From the IMG/VR virus record IMGVR_UViG_648276656_000007, positions 1 through 5,661 of that record: a stretch of 5,661 nt of DNA, one strand, 5' to 3'. Shown here piece by piece: positions 1-5,661 of the stretch. A model generated the notes under the pieces. That model was not told where the DNA came from, did not search any database, and saw nothing but the letters and a program-made list of their open reading frames with translations. A program made the translations under genes and the position numbers. The first letter of the stretch is position 1. Every line of letters begins with the position of its first letter. This stretch comes from a virus (lineage: Duplodnaviria; Heunggongvirae; Uroviricota; Caudoviricetes).

Positions 1-2
1 TC

Positions 3-161
3 ATCCGTTTAACTCCGTGGTTAATGGGTGCAACTATTTTCTGTTGGGCAGTGCATGAGACGCTATTTGACCTGGCTGGTCAGTGGATGAAACAACAGAT
101 AAAGAAAAGGCGGGCAACTCGCCTGCCTGTCCTGATTTGTACACACTCATTTTCCGACTGA
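3..161 (+). CDS. Possible 3' end of a plus-strand accessory gene entering from the left edge (frame 3, open from position 3, stop TGA 159..161); hypothetical.
   Basis: Hand translation of frame 3: IRLTPWLMGATIFCWAVHETLFDLAGQWMKQQIKKRRATRLPVLICTHSFSD*. It is open from the window edge and protein-like, with a hydrophobic stretch followed by a basic tail. It cannot be distinguished from chance without the upstream sequence. Confidence 0.2.
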   Translation: MRLTPWLMGATIFCWAVHETLFDLAGQWMKQQIKKRRATRLPVLICTHSFSD

Positions 162-284
162 CAATTTACATAGCCAAAACGCTATCAAATCTGACAGTCT
201 GCTTTGAGCGAAAAGTGGACATTAGAGTTACAAAAGCAAGTTTAAATCATCCAAAATATTACAATGTCCTTATCTATCTGATAT

Positions 285-313
285 CGTTATGATAAAAAGC
301 TCCTGAATATAAT
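285..313 (+). promoter_or_regulatory. Candidate sigma70-type promoter for the membrane-protein gene: consensus -10 TATAAT at 308..313 with a weak -35 (cgttat / ttatga region, 285..292).
   Basis: Perfect TATAAT hexamer 22 nt upstream of the ATG and 8 nt upstream of the AGGTGG RBS, within AT-rich upstream DNA. The -35 match is poor, so strength and reality are uncertain. Confidence 0.3.
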
Positions 314-320
314 CGATAGT

Positions 321-326
321 AGGTGG
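321..326 (+). promoter_or_regulatory. Shine-Dalgarno sequence AGGTGG for the membrane-protein gene (ATG at 335).
   Basis: AGGTGG with 8-nt spacer to the ATG; read directly. Confidence 0.55.
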
Positions 327-334
327 TTATTTCC

Positions 335-712
335 ATGAAATCAATTTTAGAGGTTTTTACTCAAGGAAATACTAAAGAAAAACTGGCTGTTATCGCCGAT
401 CTCACAACCATTGCGGGAATATCGATTGCAACTATTATTGCTGGTTTGTTAACCCTAGTTGCAAAAACAGATAAACTAGATGTTGGAAATCTGTTTGGAG
501 TTGTCATAATATCTCTGCTCGGATTGGCTGGTGTTTGCTGTTTTGTGGCCTTATTTATTTGGGTTATAACCCAAATGTCTAAACCATGGGGAACACCTCG
601 GGGGGTTCAGCCCTTAGTTAAGTGTGCTATTTCCCTTATCTTTATCTGTATGTTTTTGCTGGCTGTCTTTACATTTTATGATTTTATTTCCTCGATGAGC
701 ATACGCTATTGA
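335..712 (+). CDS. Hypothetical small integral membrane protein, about 125 aa from ATG 335 (the ORF track's 129-aa version starts at GTG 323), with three predicted transmembrane helices; accessory (moron-like) gene.
   Basis: ATG at 335 is preceded by AGGTGG (321..326) at 8-nt spacing, which makes ATG 335 a better start than GTG 323. Three hydrophobic stretches of about 25 residues: LAVIADLTTIAGISIATIIAGLLTLVA (about nt 383..463), LFGVVIISLLGLAGVCCFVALFIWVI (about 491..568) and LVKCAISLIFICMFLLAVFTFYDFI (about 611..685). The TGA stop at 710..712 is followed 20 nt later by a perfect hairpin terminator. A 126-codon open frame in roughly 30-40% GC DNA is unlikely by chance. I do not recognise a named family. 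Confidence 0.65.
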   Translation: MKSILEVFTQGNTKEKLAVIADLTTIAGISIATIIAGLLTLVAKTDKLDVGNLFGVVIISLLGLAGVCCFVALFIWVITQMSKPWGTPRGVQPLVKCAISLIFICMFLLAVFTFYDFISSMSIRY

Positions 713-731
713 ATATAAAATCAGCCCCATA

Positions 732-767
732 AATTAAAAGAGACCTTCTATAAGGTCTCTTTTAATT
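732..767. terminator. Bidirectional intrinsic terminator: perfect 16-bp inverted repeat AATTAAAAGAGACCTT / AAGGTCTCTTTTAATT (732..747 and 752..767) with 4-nt loop CTAT; T-tract on the plus strand and, by symmetry, on the minus strand.
   Basis: Read directly from the sequence. The GC-containing core stem AGAGACCTT/AAGGTCTCT is flanked by A4 upstream and T4 downstream on both strands. It lies 20 nt after the stop of the plus-strand membrane-protein gene and 15 nt after the stop of the candidate minus-strand small ORF. It is also the first U-tract terminator encountered by minus-strand transcription reading out of gene G. Confidence 0.6.
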
Positions 768-781
768 GAATTACTATCCTA

Positions 782-934
782 TTAATCCAGAGAATCTTTA
801 TCATCACAAAACAACAAACATTGGAGATAATTAATAAACCAATCATCCTCAAAATCATCTTTATCTTTTACAAAGCGAGTATCAGCATTAATTCTAACAT
901 CAAGTCTAGAATGAAGCATTTTATGTATCTTCAT
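782..934 (-). CDS. Candidate small acidic ORF of 50 aa from ATG 934..932 (45 aa if from ATG 919..917), convergent with the membrane-protein gene; hypothetical.
   Basis: Minus-strand translation MKIHKMLHSRLDVRINADTRFVKDKDDFEDDWFINYLQCLLFCDDKDSLD with TAA stop at 784..782, 15 nt before the palindromic terminator. The frame is open for about 50 codons in ~28% GC sequence, where stops are frequent. No convincing Shine-Dalgarno; it is below the ORF-track length cut-off. Read by hand. Confidence 0.25.
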   Translation of the reverse strand: MKIHKMLHSRLDVRINADTRFVKDKDDFEDDWFINYLQCLLFCDDKDSLD

Positions 935-1085
935 GCAGCTTGCGCGCTTTATCTCGTTTTTTGTAGGTGGTGTACTATCTCTAAATGACTATTTATATGG
1001 TGTAAGACTACTGACTTTAGAGGGCTATGATCTACATAGTTCATCTAACCATTATTCTCCAAATAAACTATACAACATCCGCTTC

Positions 1086-1127
1086 TGGCACAGAGCGGAC
1101 TGTCAGATTAGGCTTTACTCTGTGCCA
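1086..1127. other. Stem-loop / inverted repeat: 10-bp perfect stem TGGCACAGAG (1086..1095) / CTCTGTGCCA (1118..1127) with a 22-nt loop, 23 nt downstream of the G stop on the operon transcript, with no flanking U-tract.
   Basis: Read directly; all 10 base pairs are complementary. There is no T-tract on either side, so it is not a canonical intrinsic terminator. It could be a 3' mRNA-stabilising hairpin or a protein-binding or recombination site at the junction between conserved phage DNA and the AT-rich segment. Confidence 0.4.
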
Positions 1128-1149
1128 TAGATATGTAAGCTAATACAAC

Positions 1150-1677
1150 TTATTGCGGCATTTCCGGCCATTCAGGATTTGCAGGATCCACACGACTGAC
1201 CAGAACGCTGTAGCGTTCCCATGATTCCAGTCGGCTACGCTCCTCATCTGTTGCCATGTTCAGTCTGACCGCGCGCTCCAGCGGCAAAATCACGGATTCA
1301 GCATCTGCAAGAAGTCTGGCTTTCCGGTTTTGTGCCTGCTGCTGCAATTCCTCTGCCGTATAAATGCGTTTAATCACTTTGCCGTCCTTAAACATCCAGC
1401 CCCCTGAAATGTCCGCCCGTCGGTTAGCAGTAATATCCGCCACTTCAACAACACTTAATCCATCCGGTCTGATAGCTGTCACATCCTTTTCCACATAGCG
1501 GATAATATTATCTTTGTCGTACGCTATTTTTATCGTGTCATCAGCAAAATACTTTTGTTCTTCGTACCAGTTCTTACCATCTTCTGAAAAAAACCAGACA
1601 ACATCAAAACCCTTTGTCAATTGATATTGTTCAACCGTTTTTGGATTACCCGCCGTAATATTTTTTAAATGCTGCAT
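1150..1677 (-). CDS. G: Tail fibre assembly chaperone (P2 gpG / Tfa family), 175 aa.
   Basis: [43 protein letters not shown]...[42 protein letters not shown]. The C-terminal [20 protein letters not shown] motif is characteristic of phage tail-fibre assembly proteins, and 175 aa is the P2 gpG length as I recall it. It lies immediately downstream of H, with an AGGT Shine-Dalgarno-like element 7 nt before the ATG (1677..1675). Stop TAA at 1152..1150. Confidence 0.93.
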
Positions 1678-1680
1678 AAA

Positions 1681-4440
1681 TTATACCTGCGCCACGTTAT
1701 ACCATGTCCCGTTAATGTATTTCTGAACCGGTCTGTAATATACACCACCAATGTTATCGGCAGAGTTTGAGCCGGTATCCTGAACAATAATGCCGGAATA
1801 TACACACCCGGACGGTGCCTGATGTGTCCATGTCATGCCATTGTTAGCAGGTTTGTATGTGGCAGCACCACCAAGCCGGATATCCCGGACATAGCGGGAA
1901 TCAAAGTTACCGTAATCCGAGGGATTAACACGCCCCGTAATATTTATGGTTTTATTACTTTGAATACTTCCCGAGACAAAGCGCATAACATGGACGCTAT
2001 TAGCATAAACATCCAGATTACCATCACCATTTTGTTTAAAGCCCGTGTCATTATCACCCAAAACAATCGAATTACCGCCAAGAGCACTGGATGTTCCTAT
2101 ACCCAGAGCACCATTCAATTGACCACCAGATAACGGCAGTGCACCGACATCTCCCGCTGTAGGTTTTCGCGTTGTGGTATAAAACTCAGACCAGTCAGCC
2201 TCGAATCCGTAACCGTCACGAGCAGAACGATAAAAAATACCGCCGTTCTTATAATTAACGCGGAACTGGGCGGCGGGACAACTTCCTTCACCGATATTAA
2301 AATGAAGAATTAACGTTGATGCCCCACCAGTAGTTGCGTTATAGGCTCCGCTACTCCAGCTCCACCCAACGGCTTTATCATTCGCAACGGTGTCTCCTGT
2401 TTTTCCTGAAGCAAATGCACCAATATTTTTCGGCGTCAGGTTAATATCTGATGTTCCATCAAACGAAACGTTATTAATTTTACGGGCTGTTTTCAGCTTT
2501 GTTGCTGTCGCCGCATTGCCGGACAGTTCACCAGAAAGGCCAGCACTGAATGTCTGTTTCGCGCCCCATGTCTGGGCTTCGTCAATGATTGGTACTCGTC
2601 TTGCTGTGATCGTGCGGCTTCCCGGATTTCCTGAAATACGCACCATAAAAAATCGGTAGTTCGCTTTACTTACAGTGCTGCGCCATACATGCATTGAGCG
2701 CCCCGTACCGGAATCATCACTCGGACCAACTGCGATGTTTATCAGGTTGCCATCAATGACGCCCCAGTCCATACCGTCGGGAATATTGGTCATATTATCC
2801 AGCCTAACGGTTATCAGACTGCCCGGCACAAAATCGTAGGTCTGCCAGTCCAGGTTGGTGAGCTTTGCCACAGCACCGCCGATACCCAGATTCAGGGGAA
2901 GTGAATACGAGGTGTAGACTTCCCGCCATTCGCTCCATGAGCTGCCGGTAAAGACGCGCTCAAAGGTGCGGCCTTTAAGGGTTGTACCTGTTCCGGCAGT
3001 TGTATAACGCTGCCATACATTAACACCATCAAACCGCCTCAACACTTCCAGAATGCCGAGTACAGTCACGCCGTTTCCGTCCAGTACTGGACCGTTGGTC
3101 GCTTTACCTGTAACGCTGTAAATACCTGGTGAGGTTACATCATTCAAATCACCTTCGTAATAACGACTCTCTGACTGATGACCGACTCTTAACCACGGTT
3201 CCCACTGCGGATTTGATGCATCCCAGCTTGCCGCAAGGCAGCGGACATACATATTTCCACGGCGAGTGGTATAACGTTGCGTTCTTCCATAATTCCCGCC
3301 TTCGAGGATCTCAAGCGTCCCCTGAGCAAAGCCACCTTCCTCTGGATAATTGAGTTCATATGAAGCTATAGCCGAGCTACTGTTACGCCATAAACCAAGA
3401 TGTTCGGCGGATCCAAGCGTATTCAGGTCTATAGTCGTACTCAAAGGGCGGGTAGCTGATTGAGTGTGACGCCATACGCCCCACGGACCATCAGTGCCAT
3501 TCCACTTATTGGCGAGTTTACGCATGTATACATTGCCGTCTCTTGTGGTAAAGCGTTGCGTACCTGCAAAATTGCCGGCAGCAAAAACCTCAAGCACACC
3601 GACAGCATTATCTTCCGGGAAGTTTTTCTCCAGTGTTGCGTTAGTTGAGGTAGCTTTAGACCAGATCCCTAGATAAGCCTTAACGGGACCAAATGTATTC
3701 AGGTCAGCATCAAGCGGCATTTCGCCATTGTTTTTCATAAACGTCAGGCTGGTAACGCCAACATTGTCCAGAAAAGCGCCCTTATCTGGAATATCGCCAC
3801 CGTTCTGGTCTTTCTGCATACGTTTTTCAGCATTGTCATAGGCTGCTTTTACTGCCTTTGGCGTTGCTGCCAGCTTTTCACTGGTGCTGTTTGTTGCACT
3901 GCTTAACTGAGTAAAACCTTTTTCTGTCAGCGTGGCGTCAGGATGGCGACGGGACTGCTCATGCTCTGCGATTTTGTCATCGACGTAATCCTGCGTCGCC
4001 ATCACTGTGCTGGCATCAATACTCAGTTCAACGGACGCCACGTTACTGACAATAATGACCATGCGGCAGGTCTGCGCACGTCCGGAGCCTTCAGCCAGTT
4101 CAGGCTTATAACTTTCTGCCATGTTAGCGACCGCAATCAGTGTTCCGGCATCGTCATACAGACCAAGTTCACGCATCCAGAAGCCGCCCACTTCTGGCGG
4201 TACAACCAGTTCAGCCACGATATAGTTTTTATTCTTATTATCCACGCTGACTTTATTCAGAGCGTGACGCCAGACCTCATGCACCAGTTTCGTCTGACCG
4301 GCATCCGGCACCGGCAATTTGCCATTACCGTCACCCACGGCCATTGCAGACAAGTTTACTTTTTTCCCGCCGGGGACAGTGGCGGCAGCCAGCTTTGCGG
4401 CTCCGGCAGTAGTGATAACGGTTTTAAATTTCGTGCTCAT
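1681..4440 (-). CDS. H: Tail fibre protein H (P2 gpH-like), 919 aa, mosaic: conserved N-terminal baseplate-attachment region, three tandem ~93-aa central repeats, conserved P2-H-type C-terminus.
   Basis: Uninterrupted 919-codon ORF. The N-terminus MSTKFKTVITTAGAAKLAAAT...GGFWMRELGLYDDAGTLIAVANMAESYKPELAEGSG and the C-terminus ...LGGNSIVLGDNDTGFKQNGDGNLDVYANS...NFDSRYV...RPVQKYINGTWYNVAQV match my recollection of P2 gpH. It sits between I and the chaperone G as in P2. The TAA stop at 1683..1681 is 3 nt before the G start. Confidence 0.93.
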   Translation of the reverse strand: MSTKFKTVITTAGAAKLAAATVPGGKKVNLSAMAVGDGNGKLPVPDAGQTKLVHEVWRHALNKVSVDNKNKNYIVAELVVPPEVGGFWMRELGLYDDAGTLIAVANMAESYKPELAEGSGRAQTCRMVIIVSNVASVELSIDASTVMATQDYVDDKIAEHEQSRRHPDATLTEKGFTQLSSATNSTSEKLAATPKAVKAAYDNAEKRMQKDQNGGDIPDKGAFLDNVGVTSLTFMKNNGEMPLDADLNTFGPVKAYLGIWSKATSTNATLEKNFPEDNAVGVLEVFAAGNFAGTQRFTTRDGNVYMRKLANKWNGTDGPWGVWRHTQSATRPLSTTIDLNTLGSAEHLGLWRNSSSAIASYELNYPEEGGFAQGTLEILEGGNYGRTQRYTTRRGNMYVRCLAASWDASNPQWEPWLRVGHQSESRYYEGDLNDVTSPGIYSVTGKATNGPVLDGNGVTVLGILEVLRRFDGVNVWQRYTTAGTGTTLKGRTFERVFTGSSWSEWREVYTSYSLPLNLGIGGAVAKLTNLDWQTYDFVPGSLITVRLDNMTNIPDGMDWGVIDGNLINIAVGPSDDSGTGRSMHVWRSTVSKANYRFFMVRISGNPGSRTITARRVPIIDEAQTWGAKQTFSAGLSGELSGNAATATKLKTARKINNVSFDGTSDINLTPKNIGAFASGKTGDTVANDKAVGWSWSSGAYNATTGGASTLILHFNIGEGSCPAAQFRVNYKNGGIFYRSARDGYGFEADWSEFYTTTRKPTAGDVGALPLSGGQLNGALGIGTSSALGGNSIVLGDNDTGFKQNGDGNLDVYANSVHVMRFVSGSIQSNKTINITGRVNPSDYGNFDSRYVRDIRLGGAATYKPANNGMTWTHQAPSGCVYSGIIVQDTGSNSADNIGGVYYRPVQKYINGTWYNVAQV
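2911..3708 (-). repeat. Three in-frame tandem coding repeats of about 93 aa (about 279 nt) inside tail fibre gene H (protein residues about 245-337, 338-430, 431-510).
   Basis: Each unit starts with DLN(T/D) and carries the motif G(V/T/I)LE(V/I)...G..(T/W)QR(F/Y)TT(R/A)..(N/T).Y.R....W.....W..W. Examples are GVLEVFAAGNFAGTQRFTTRDGNVYMRKLANKWNGTDGPWGVW, GTLEILEGGNYGRTQRYTTRRGNMYVRCLAASWDASNPQWEPW and GILEVLRRFDGVNVWQRYTTAGTGTTLKGRTFERVFTGSSWSEW. Residue-to-nucleotide mapping was checked at Y390 = 3273..3271. Repeats 1 and 2 are also recognisable at the DNA level. Confidence 0.7.
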
Positions 4441-4450
4441 TGTTTCTCAC

Positions 4451-4981
4451 TTATCCGGGATAAACAGTAATAACATCACCATCACAGACCACACCGCCTG
4501 TATACAGATAGCCGGGAATGTCCTGGATAATGTTCAGACCGATAAGGTGGCGACTTGCGGGTTTGGCATCGGCAATCAGCCGTTCCATTTCCAGATACAT
4601 TTCCTCTGTGATACCGCTTTCCAGCACGCCGATATCAAGGCGAAAGGTTCCGGCCGGGTCGTTTGTCTCCCACCATTCCTTTACATTAATGAGATAGCCG
4701 AGCGGCTCCACCACACGCCGGATTGCACCTATAGTGCCTTTATGACAGTGGATGAAATAGGCATCGCGGATAACGGCGCGTTTTGTCGCTTCCGGCCACT
4801 TTTCATCCCACCTGTCGACCGAAAACGCCCACGCCAGCCACGGCAGCAGATTTGCCGGACAGGTATCCGGGTTCCACAGCTCACGAATACTGACCGGCGT
4901 TTTTTCAATTTCCGCACAGGCTTTTGCGGCAGCAACTTCAAGCGGTGATGAGCCGGTCGGCAGCAGGCGCGAATCACTCAT
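4451..4981 (-). CDS. I: Tail/baseplate protein I (P2 gpI-like), 176 aa.
   Basis: ORF MSDSRLLPTGSSPLEVAAAK...DGDVITVYPG, 176 aa, which is the length I recall for P2 gpI. A GGAGG Shine-Dalgarno (complement of 4987..4991) sits 5 nt upstream of the ATG at 4981..4979. The start overlaps the J stop (ATGAGTGA), as expected for translationally coupled P2 late genes. The TAA stop at 4453..4451 lies 10 nt before the H start. Confidence 0.9.
   Translation of the reverse strand: MSDSRLLPTGSSPLEVAAAKACAEIEKTPVSIRELWNPDTCPANLLPWLAWAFSVDRWDEKWPEATKRAVIRDAYFIHCHKGTIGAIRRVVEPLGYLINVKEWWETNDPAGTFRLDIGVLESGITEEMYLEMERLIADAKPASRHLIGLNIIQDIPGYLYTGGVVCDGDVITVYPG
4974..4981 (-). promoter_or_regulatory. Overlapping stop/start junction ATGAGTGA between J (stop TGA) and I (start ATG), indicating translational coupling.
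   Basis: On the minus strand the I start ATG (4981..4979) and the J stop TGA (4976..4974) overlap in different frames; read directly. Confidence 0.6.
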
Positions 4982-5661
4982 CCGAGCCTCCGGTCACGAC
5001 GCGGTATTCGGTACAGAAAGACGCCTGCGTACTGTCAAGCACGATGTCAGCCAGCGGTGCAGCCAGTTCGACACGCTGCACGCCTTCCACATGCAAAGCG
5101 GCATAAATGGCAGACAGACGGATATCGCGCCCCAGCCGGTGCTGTGCCGTGATGTACGCTTCCAGTTTTTTCACGGCGGCAGCGCGGATGGGTTCGCTTT
5201 CGGGACCAGGGTAAAGGTAAAGCGTGGCGTTTATCTGGTATTCAACAATGGCGGCAGACTGCACGGTCACACGGTCTGCCACCGGTCTGACGTCCTCGCC
5301 ATTCAGGGCGTTACGCACCACGGCCAGCAGGTCTTCGGATGCGACACCGTTATTTTCACGTGACAGCACAGAGATGGTGACACAGGCCGGAGACGGACTG
5401 GTGACAGAGATATCCGCGACACGCCCGTCGGCACTGCGACCATGATACTGATAGGCTCCCACCGACCCGGCGACGCTTAAGCCTTCAAACGCCTGCTGAA
5501 TACGCAGACGATAATCGGTGTCAGACTCCATCACTGCCGGTGTCGGCGGGATAGTCGAATCATCTGCCGGGGTGATAATCAGGCGCGAGGTGTTGTAATT
5601 AGCACCAATCACATCAAGGTCATTACCGGCAGCACAGGCCAGCATCACCGCCCGTGCGGCC
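4974..5661 (-). CDS. J: Baseplate assembly protein J (P2 gpJ-like), 5'-partial. The reading frame stays open to the window edge at 5661, so the true start lies beyond the window; stop TGA at 4976..4974.
   Basis: Long minus-strand ORF (at least 228 codons) in GC-rich, coding-like sequence, directly upstream of and overlapping a gpI-like gene in the conserved P2 order J-I-H-G. The in-frame codons upstream of the track's first Met (5649..5660) have no stop. P2 gpJ is about 300 aa from memory, consistent with a truncated N-terminus. Family assignment is from gene order and recalled sequence character, not a search. Confidence 0.85.
   Translation of the reverse strand, partial: AARAVMLACAAGNDLDVIGANYNTSRLIITPADDSTIPPTPAVMESDTDYRLRIQQAFEGLSVAGSVGAYQYHGRSADGRVADISVTSPSPACVTISVLSRENNGVASEDLLAVVRNALNGEDVRPVADRVTVQSAAIVEYQINATLYLYPGPESEPIRAAAVKKLEAYITAQHRLGRDIRLSAIYAALHVEGVQRVELAAPLADIVLDSTQASFCTEYRVVTGGSDE

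Follow-up and report, generated by a model that had tools for sequence, protein, structure and literature searches.

An AT-rich Z/fun cassette of a P2-like Escherichia coli prophage holding one predicted membrane-protein gene and the remnant of an ATPase gene

The stretch of viral DNA analysed here (5,661 nt, hereafter the window; positions 1 to 5,661 of IMG/VR record IMGVR_UViG_648276656_000007) begins with the complete Z/fun accessory slot of a P2-like Escherichia coli prophage, which occupies positions 1-1149 and extends from the start codon of the tail sheath gene FI (4..2) to the stop codon of the tail fibre assembly gene G (1150). The slot holds an AT-rich cassette, acquired horizontally, that lies between the Z-region repeats at 188-222 and 1078-1109 and contains a single intact gene, predicted to encode an inner-membrane protein of 125 amino acids. 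A deletion of about 1.6 kb removed a neighbouring ATPase gene in this prophage lineage and left its last ~60 codons, which have since decayed. The anatomy of slot and cassette is secure; an anti-phage function of the 125-amino-acid protein is a contextual guess. We regard it as about an even bet that, in a complete slot from which the ATPase has been lost, the membrane protein is a stand-alone factor excluding phages at the level of the membrane, and this is the best explanation available. The features of the slot are as follows.

2-4, minus strand: start codon ATG of the tail sheath gene FI, left limit of the interval, with ribosome-binding site (RBS) GGAG at 13-16
28-127, minus strand: region of the P_F late promoter within the conserved P2 backbone, its transcription start and activator site located through the P2 annotation
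188-222, plus strand: border site of the cassette (AATCTGACAGTCTGCTTTGAGCGAAAAGTGGACAT), known in the Z region as the 'right inverted repeat', placed by the inverted repeat and the P2-EC67 GenBank annotation
262-297, plus strand: conserved putative promoter core of the cargo gene, with -10 hexamer TATGAT at 288-293
335-712, plus strand: intact open reading frame (ORF) for a 125-amino-acid predicted inner-membrane protein with three transmembrane helices, RBS AGGTGG at 320-325
732-767, no strand assigned: perfect 16-bp inverted repeat with a 4-nt loop, a bidirectional terminator-like hairpin placed by folding
839-1019, minus strand: pseudogene, the last ~60 codons of the gene for a 556-amino-acid Sll1717-family P-loop ATPase, 5'-truncated and with a nonsense codon
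1023-1098, plus strand: sequence that in the intact cassette lies upstream of the ATPase start codon, now fused to the 3' remnant, placed by homology
1072-1149, no strand assigned: conserved P2 backbone downstream of G, with the left inverted repeat, placed by homology
1078-1109, no strand assigned: 'left inverted repeat' arm, right cassette border, TCCGCTTCTGGCACAGAGCGGACTGTCAGATT, placed by the inverted repeat and GenBank annotation
1150-1677, minus strand: tail fibre assembly (chaperone) gene G, right limit of the Z/fun interval, placed by its ORF and the annotation of homologous loci

The left limit of the slot was identified by alignment of the window start to P2 (NC_001895) and P2-EC67 (...GGAGTTAAACGGATGA), in which the window opens with ...GGAGTTAAACGG-ATGA, the ribosome-binding site and start codon of FI. 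In three of the loci used for comparison, which are numbered with the prefix L (L001, L002 and L003), the annotated sheath coding sequence stops 3 nt inside the match. With the FI ATG at 4..2 the whole G-FI interval lies in the window. A first-pass annotation of the sequence had assumed that the island ran off the left edge and that further genes of its system were out of view; neither assumption holds, as the window begins at the FI start and the partner ATPase has been deleted, its remnant lying at 839-1019. The same annotation had correctly placed the interval at P2 Z/fun, between G and FI, where P2 carries fun(Z), a gene transcribed away from P_F according to the P2 annotation. Its description of the locus as a published site of anti-phage cargo is also borne out by Vassallo et al. 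(2022; PMC9519451), who reported Z/fun as the second defence-enriched P2 hotspot and the source of three of their systems. The other P2 hotspot, between gpA and gpQ, was analysed by Rousset et al. (2022).

A megablast search of 1-1149 against 50,697 phage records returned 78 P2-like phages, which match 1 to ~225 and ~1072 to 1149 only, covering 25% of the query at most; more than 70 P2-like phage records have 1-225 at 90-95% identity, and canonical P2 (NC_001895) aligns to the interval at 1-219 and 1072-1109 only. The cargo is thus not fun(Z). The stretch 1072-1149 is common to about 900 E. coli genomes and many P2-like phages, and the flanks are matched in about 1,205 complete E. coli genomes, as against 64 with the cargo gene, in keeping with the expectation that flanks would be conserved and cargo variable. 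Roughly one in five of the complete E. coli genomes that were searched had a P2-like prophage. Within the left backbone, alignment to the P2 annotation places the P_F transcription start at ~28-30 and an Ogr-type activator site at ~71-97, and a terminator scan and folding identified a terminator-like hairpin with a T-run upstream of P_F, at 98-127. A 69-amino-acid ORF on the plus strand (83-292; phrog_11095, E = 1.7e-25) was considered as a gene and rejected, as it overlaps the P_F promoter, the activator site and a terminator, and in P2 its frame is disrupted by an indel of 2 nt. Hypothetical proteins overlapping this ORF are annotated in several P2-like phage records, and it is probably a propagated mis-annotation.

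Base composition sets the cargo apart. The GC (guanine plus cytosine) content of 226-1071 is 33.8% compared with 50.7% for 1150-5661, and to the right of G the minimum over any 846-nt window is 42.8%; the backbone stretches 1-225 and 1072-1149 each have 45% GC. The drop in GC noted in the first-pass annotation is therefore real; its boundary, placed there abruptly at the G stop codon (1150), lies at ~1072-1109. Similarly, of the 1,149 nucleotides that had all been taken as island, 226-1071 remain so, and 1-225 and 1072-1149 are P2 backbone. An Rfam search of 1-1300 identified no RNA gene match at E <= 1.

The cassette is bordered by two arms, 188-219 and 1078-1109, which are 81% complementary with 12 identical terminal bases and coincide with the inverted repeats annotated by Nilsson and colleagues in the Z-region GenBank records of P2-EC67 and P2-EC45. 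A border site of ~35 bp (CTGACAGTCTGCTTTGAGCGAAAAGYGGACRT) delimits unlike cargos, namely those of P2 (fun(Z)) and P2-EC67 and of islands in Enterobacter, Serratia and Pectobacterium. It was located at cassette borders in L002 (two copies), L009, L017, L019 and L037, and is also found in L004 at ~450. Homology among these unlike cargos breaks directly past GGACRT (GGACAT in the window). Two direct copies of the site (L002 2203 and 3100) flank an extra DUF6650 cassette that lies between P_F and the window-type cassette in E. coli LS4, and contig L037 has three copies (4870, 8032 and 9803) in tandem between stacked cassettes. An internal dyad, TCCGCT-N10-AGCGGA, is present in the right arm.

The gene at 335-712 is the only convincing one in the G-FI interval and lies on the strand opposite to the tail genes; the orientation flip and the single well-supported plus-strand gene noted at first reading, with an RBS, a candidate promoter and a terminator, were confirmed. 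RefSeq lists the product as a hypothetical protein, for example WP_000836023.1 from strain A30, in which the locus shares 98.5% identity with the window, and the exact window protein is recorded from 52 E. coli contigs, each time as hypothetical. It matches phrog_4155 (function unknown) with E = 2.6e-82. Hydropathy analysis indicated three spans, at approximately residues 20-43, 53-81 and 94-118, with lysine and arginine concentrated in the N-terminus and in loop 2 (82-93), a distribution that fits an N-in, C-out topology. AlphaFold2, run with a 33-sequence alignment, gave a mean confidence score (pLDDT) of 80.7 and a model with a short N-terminal helix followed by long helices at 13-44, 50-81 and 91-120. 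These predictions are consistent with a protein seated in the inner membrane with its N-terminus and loop 2 in the cytoplasm. A class I holin, which would also have three transmembrane segments but in addition a highly charged C-terminal tail and a place in the lysis cassette, was considered and rejected: the C-terminus, SSMSIRY, has one charge, the slot is not beside the lysis genes and the PHROG holin match has E = 0.18.

Homologs of the protein form a small family. An exhaustive HMMER scan of 1.84 billion representatives identified 31 clusters (at 50% identity) of the phrog_4155 family, all of single-domain proteins of ~120-130 amino acids. Its members share the N-terminal motif G-x-AKERLAVIAD, with Asp22 and Gly28 invariant at the start of helix 1. 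Ratios of non-synonymous to synonymous substitution rates (dN/dS) for the gene between genera range from 0.19 to 0.48, with dS up to 0.8, indicating a real gene under purifying selection.

Putative expression signals flank the gene. The 36-nt promoter core at 262-297 is 86-94% identical across E. coli, Enterobacter, Serratia, Yersinia and Pectobacterium, compared with 27-71% for the flanking non-coding DNA; across the five genera it is conserved above the coding region too. It includes a dyad, ATATC-N11-GATAT, which suggests an operator for a possible regulator, and the cargo promoter points away from the late tail operon. Downstream of the gene, the hairpin at 732-767 (plus strand) has a folding energy of -19.4 kcal/mol (z = -7.2), with no shuffled sequence folding equally well, and it is kept in Enterobacter and Serratia between two convergent genes.

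The history of the cassette was reconstructed from its relatives. Positions 197-1019 of the window are colinear, at 84-87% identity, with loci of Enterobacter ludwigii, Serratia marcescens and a metagenome contig (the colinear loci for this segment and for 1023-1098 being L009, L017, L019 and L037), in which the membrane-protein gene faces a convergent gene for a 556-amino-acid ATPase across the same hairpin. Window 713-1019 is 84% identical to L017 6379-6685, and 1023-1098 is 80-82% identical to L017 8285-8360, L019 2588-2663 and L009 8282-8358. Homology ends at ~1019 and picks up again at 1023, in sequence that precedes the ATPase start codon in the intact cassette, so that about 1.6 kb has been deleted, with the junction at ~1019-1023. 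In a residue-level alignment with the C-terminus of the ATPase, the remnant carries a TGG to TAG change (tryptophan to stop) at 991..989 and has lost its own stop codon. Because of this decay a spurious 50-amino-acid ORF appears at 782-934 on the minus strand; considered as a partner gene or toxin, it proved to be the out-of-context tail of the ATPase pseudogene. The plus-strand ORFs 821-988, 933-1130 and 1027-1143 were also dismissed, as they are antisense to the remnant or lie in the backbone; ORF 933-1130, the only one of the three that was scanned, gave no family match in Pfam, PADLOC, PHROG and NCBIfam.

A full-length ortholog of the ATPase (L017 6505-8175) matches NF047389 with E = 1e-61; nSTAND models and the DS41_1 anti-phage model match the 556-amino-acid protein weakly. 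The remnant at 839-1019 is not a full-length NF047389 member, the window having no ATPase domain. A homolog with 75% nucleotide identity, WP_000026497.1, is encoded on the E. coli plasmid pECO-6357 (L020 2817-4490) and on 23 other E. coli plasmids, where it adjoins ParDE and VapBC modules and is unaccompanied by the membrane-protein gene; DefensePredictor includes WP_000026497.1 among its predictions of novel defence genes, at log-odds 14.7. No intact ATPase gene was found in a P2 context in E. coli, all E. coli homologs being plasmid-borne.

The membrane-protein gene is present in 64 of 5,426 complete E. coli genomes, always on the chromosome and never on a plasmid, and on nine P2-like contigs of IMG/VR, which have only the second or third of the arrangements below. 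A scan of GTDB species representatives returned a single locus, in Pectobacterium. The following arrangements occur in E. coli.

Arrangement a, 8 genomes: as in the window
Arrangement b, 18 genomes: as in the window, with the DUF6650 cassette in addition
Arrangement c, roughly 35-40 genomes, most of those left after a and b: 1-752 kept, followed by genes for a ~194-amino-acid tyrosine recombinase and a DUF5677 protein, the junction lying in the hairpin loop

Arrangements a and b share one ATPase deletion, which therefore happened once. In LS4, which has arrangement b, G is truncated by an IS21-like ISEc12 insertion (L002 4060-6044); the prophage is defective, yet has retained the Z-locus cargo. 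Elsewhere the gene and its promoter travel as a unit into other settings, including a Yersinia locus with a convergent gene for a 276-amino-acid protein and a DUF4145 protein gene, a Pectobacterium integrative element with a relaxase and integrases, a metagenome contig with an AIPR protein beside it, and a Thermomonas prophage region with Tad2-like and Sequestin genes. A homolog with 49% identity lies between gpA and the portal gene of a P2-like prophage (L031 5001-5378; GCA_032192255.1), the site of the other P2 hotspot, at 1.3 kb from a retron-type reverse transcriptase gene, and one with 42% identity adjoins nucleotidyltransferase and SLATT genes. At least six unlike neighbours were counted across 11 contexts: the ATPase, DUF6650, the recombinase with DUF5677, the 276-amino-acid protein with DUF4145, AIPR and the retron-type reverse transcriptase. 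No partner is kept across the 11 contexts, and the pair formed with the ATPase gene is convergent, so that neither conserved co-occurrence nor co-transcription with one partner was found.

How such cassettes move is suggested by a tyrosine recombinase (PF00589) of ~194-200 amino acids whose copies, 91-93% identical and all outside the window, adjoin the membrane-gene cassette in three independent contexts.

L003 4735-5319: recombinase copy of arrangement c, at the P2 Z locus of E. coli
L017 3732-4334: recombinase copy
L037 7384-7986: recombinase copy

This ~200-amino-acid protein is a candidate for the site-specific enzyme that swaps Z-region cassettes. The cassette in the window would have arrived through recombination at the ~35-bp border sites, a reaction probably catalysed by the recombinase that travels with such cassettes elsewhere. 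Inverted repeats together with a recombinase of FimB size might also denote an invertible element, an interpretation that was rejected: the cassette has the same orientation in all loci aligned over the flanks (8 with the cassette alone, 18 with DUF6650, and the arrangement c loci over 1-752), and there is hence no evidence of inversion.

On the favoured explanation, the lysogen would produce the membrane protein from the promoter that belongs to the gene, and the protein would act alone, protecting its host against other phages at the membrane either by blocking genome entry (superinfection exclusion) or by collapsing the membrane upon infection. Stand-alone exclusion is favoured because the unit is autonomous, has persisted after loss of the ATPase and occurs in both P2 hotspots and in other defence-rich islands, and because small phage-encoded membrane proteins that block genome entry set a precedent. 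A wider proposal, that the family as a whole is an unrecognised stand-alone anti-phage or superinfection-exclusion factor, shuttled as a promoter-gene-terminator unit between both P2 hotspots and mobile islands and moved by the ~200-amino-acid recombinase at the ~35-bp sites, is put forward tentatively as a possibility; if it were true, recombinase and site would represent the long-postulated recombination machinery of the Z/fun hotspot.

Several observations weigh against an anti-phage role. Searches of PADLOC, Pfam, NCBIfam and PDB sequences and fold searches gave nothing specific for the 125-amino-acid protein: Pfam, PADLOC and NCBIfam assigned it to no family, the best PADLOC match (PADLOC-DB v2, 2TM model) was insignificant at E = 0.89, PADLOC over 33 family members gave a single weak match to PycTM (E = 0.005), and fold searches recovered generic helical bundles only. 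The island matched no known defence system in these model searches, and the proposed role draws on position and context. No experimental or homology link of the phrog_4155 family to phage resistance was found, the Vassallo and DefensePredictor supplements, in those parts that could be searched, do not list the protein, and a tblastn search of the 50,697 INPHARED records gave no match to the gene in phage isolates. Copies within E. coli are 96-99% identical, so that recent spread rather than selection could explain the intact gene, and between the window and arrangement b dN/dS is 0.64, calculated from 12 changes only. A consensus promoter scan missed the core at 262-297, a presumptive promoter in the lysogen. 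Finally, a cassette that has lost its larger partner could retain an inactive orphan.

This last point leads to an alternative that we consider unlikely, in which the ATPase as sensor and the membrane protein as a pore-forming or depolarising effector made up a two-gene abortive-infection system, and the membrane-protein gene is now inert and not yet decayed. Both genes travel in one repeat-bounded cassette in Enterobacter, Serratia and the metagenome contig, published defence systems often pair an NTPase (nucleoside triphosphatase) or other sensor with a transmembrane effector (Rousset et al., 2022), and the E. coli copies are too alike to prove selection after the deletion. However, the two genes have a promoter each and converge on a terminator hairpin that separates them, and each is found without the other: the membrane-protein gene with other neighbours in Yersinia, Pectobacterium, Thermomonas and the other P2 hotspot, and the ATPase gene on E. 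coli plasmids. The deletion derivative is moreover established in at least 26 complete genomes in two arrangements, and the third arrangement kept the membrane-protein gene while everything past the hairpin was swapped.

It is likewise improbable, to a similar degree, that the gene serves lysogenic conversion outside defence, altering host physiology (envelope stress, transport, colonisation, or resistance to toxins or colicins) and not targeting phages. Such a role would suit a 125-amino-acid protein with no defence-family signature in a locus whose ORFs were originally labelled 'putative lysogenic conversion protein' in GenBank, and P2 hotspots do carry non-defence cargo, for instance partitioning systems and cytolethal distending toxin (Rousset et al., 2022). 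Against this, the neighbours of the gene are mostly defence-like or mobile (AIPR, retron reverse transcriptase, STAND-like ATPase, DUF4145, SLATT and toxin-antitoxin genes), and no metabolic or virulence partner recurs. Very unlikely, in our view, is that the cassette is a decaying remnant with no functional product, its 125-amino-acid ORF conserved through recent insertion only; half of it is indeed a pseudogene and the locus is rare (64 of 5,426 genomes), yet all genera examined have an intact ORF, with dN/dS of 0.19-0.29 at dS of 0.5-0.8, homologs down to 25% identity keep length and architecture, and the promoter core is more tightly constrained than the adjoining DNA. Among these explanations stand-alone exclusion at the membrane remains the preferred one.

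The hotspot and its inverted repeats have already been published; the cargo, one gene and a pseudogene, is uncharacterised and modest. Its interest lies in the fact that the two P2 hotspots supply a sizeable share of the E. coli anti-phage repertoire and that the window shows the less studied of the two cleanly and with both limits defined. It illustrates that Z/fun cargo can be a degraded system, which annotation pipelines and positional inference would overcall. A tiny membrane-protein family that outlives the decay of its cassette and recurs in both P2 hotspots is a cheap candidate for testing, and the border sites with the linked small recombinase offer a handle on cassette swapping. Should the membrane protein not be protective, the locus would be an ordinary decayed moron.

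To the right of the slot, G and the other tail genes of a P2-like phage fill the minus strand of the window.

1681-4440, minus strand: H, identified as an ORF
4451-4981, minus strand: I, identified as an ORF
4974-5648 (cut), minus strand: J, identified as an ORF

GC falls to 34% where H ends and G begins (window 1501-1700), and G (within 1150-1700), taken together with its downstream spacer, is only ~78% identical to the P2-like contigs sharing the cargo gene; this low identity and the drop in GC indicate a tail-fibre/chaperone mosaic that is independent of the Z-locus cargo.

Compared with known systems, the window resembles deposited Z-region cargo most directly in its setting. Like fun(Z) and the Z-region ORFs of P2-like coliphages (Nilsson et al., 2004; GenBank AJ5126xx), the cargo occupies the G-FI position between flanking repeats, is AT-rich, is transcribed away from P_F and belongs to a variable set; in sequence it is unrelated to Fun(Z) (528 amino acids) and the deposited Z-region ORFs, tblastn giving no match in phage records. 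The remnant at 839-1019 aligns to the C-terminus of the Sll1717 ATPases (NF047389), which are distantly similar to the DS-41 protein validated with DefensePredictor, and differs from them in comprising only ~60 C-terminal codons interrupted by a stop. With integron-like cassette arrays the locus shares cassettes delimited by a conserved ~35-bp site, copies of that site between tandem cassettes and, in other genomes, a recurrently linked small tyrosine recombinase. Unlike in those arrays, the sites are not attC-like in sequence and are inverted around cassettes, the window has no recombinase gene, and the linked recombinase, of ~200 amino acids and with putative activity on the sites, is not IntI-like.

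At the level of the protein, transmembrane effectors of abortive infection, such as RexB with RexA and the 2TM and 4TM proteins of CBASS, retrons and Pycsar, are similarly short, all-helical membrane proteins, and in some genomes the 125-amino-acid gene adjoins a putative sensor of NTPase or reverse transcriptase type; it differs from theirs in sharing no operon with a sensor and in having no conserved partner. T4 Imm, P22 SieA and HK97 gp15 block genome entry. The 125-amino-acid protein has no sequence or specific fold similarity to them, T4 Imm has two helices compared with its three, and a block of genome entry is here a candidate function only. The likeness is one of type: a small, enzymatically featureless, multi-helix protein, phage-encoded and predicted to be integral to the inner membrane, specified by a prophage as a stand-alone moron with a promoter and terminator of its own.

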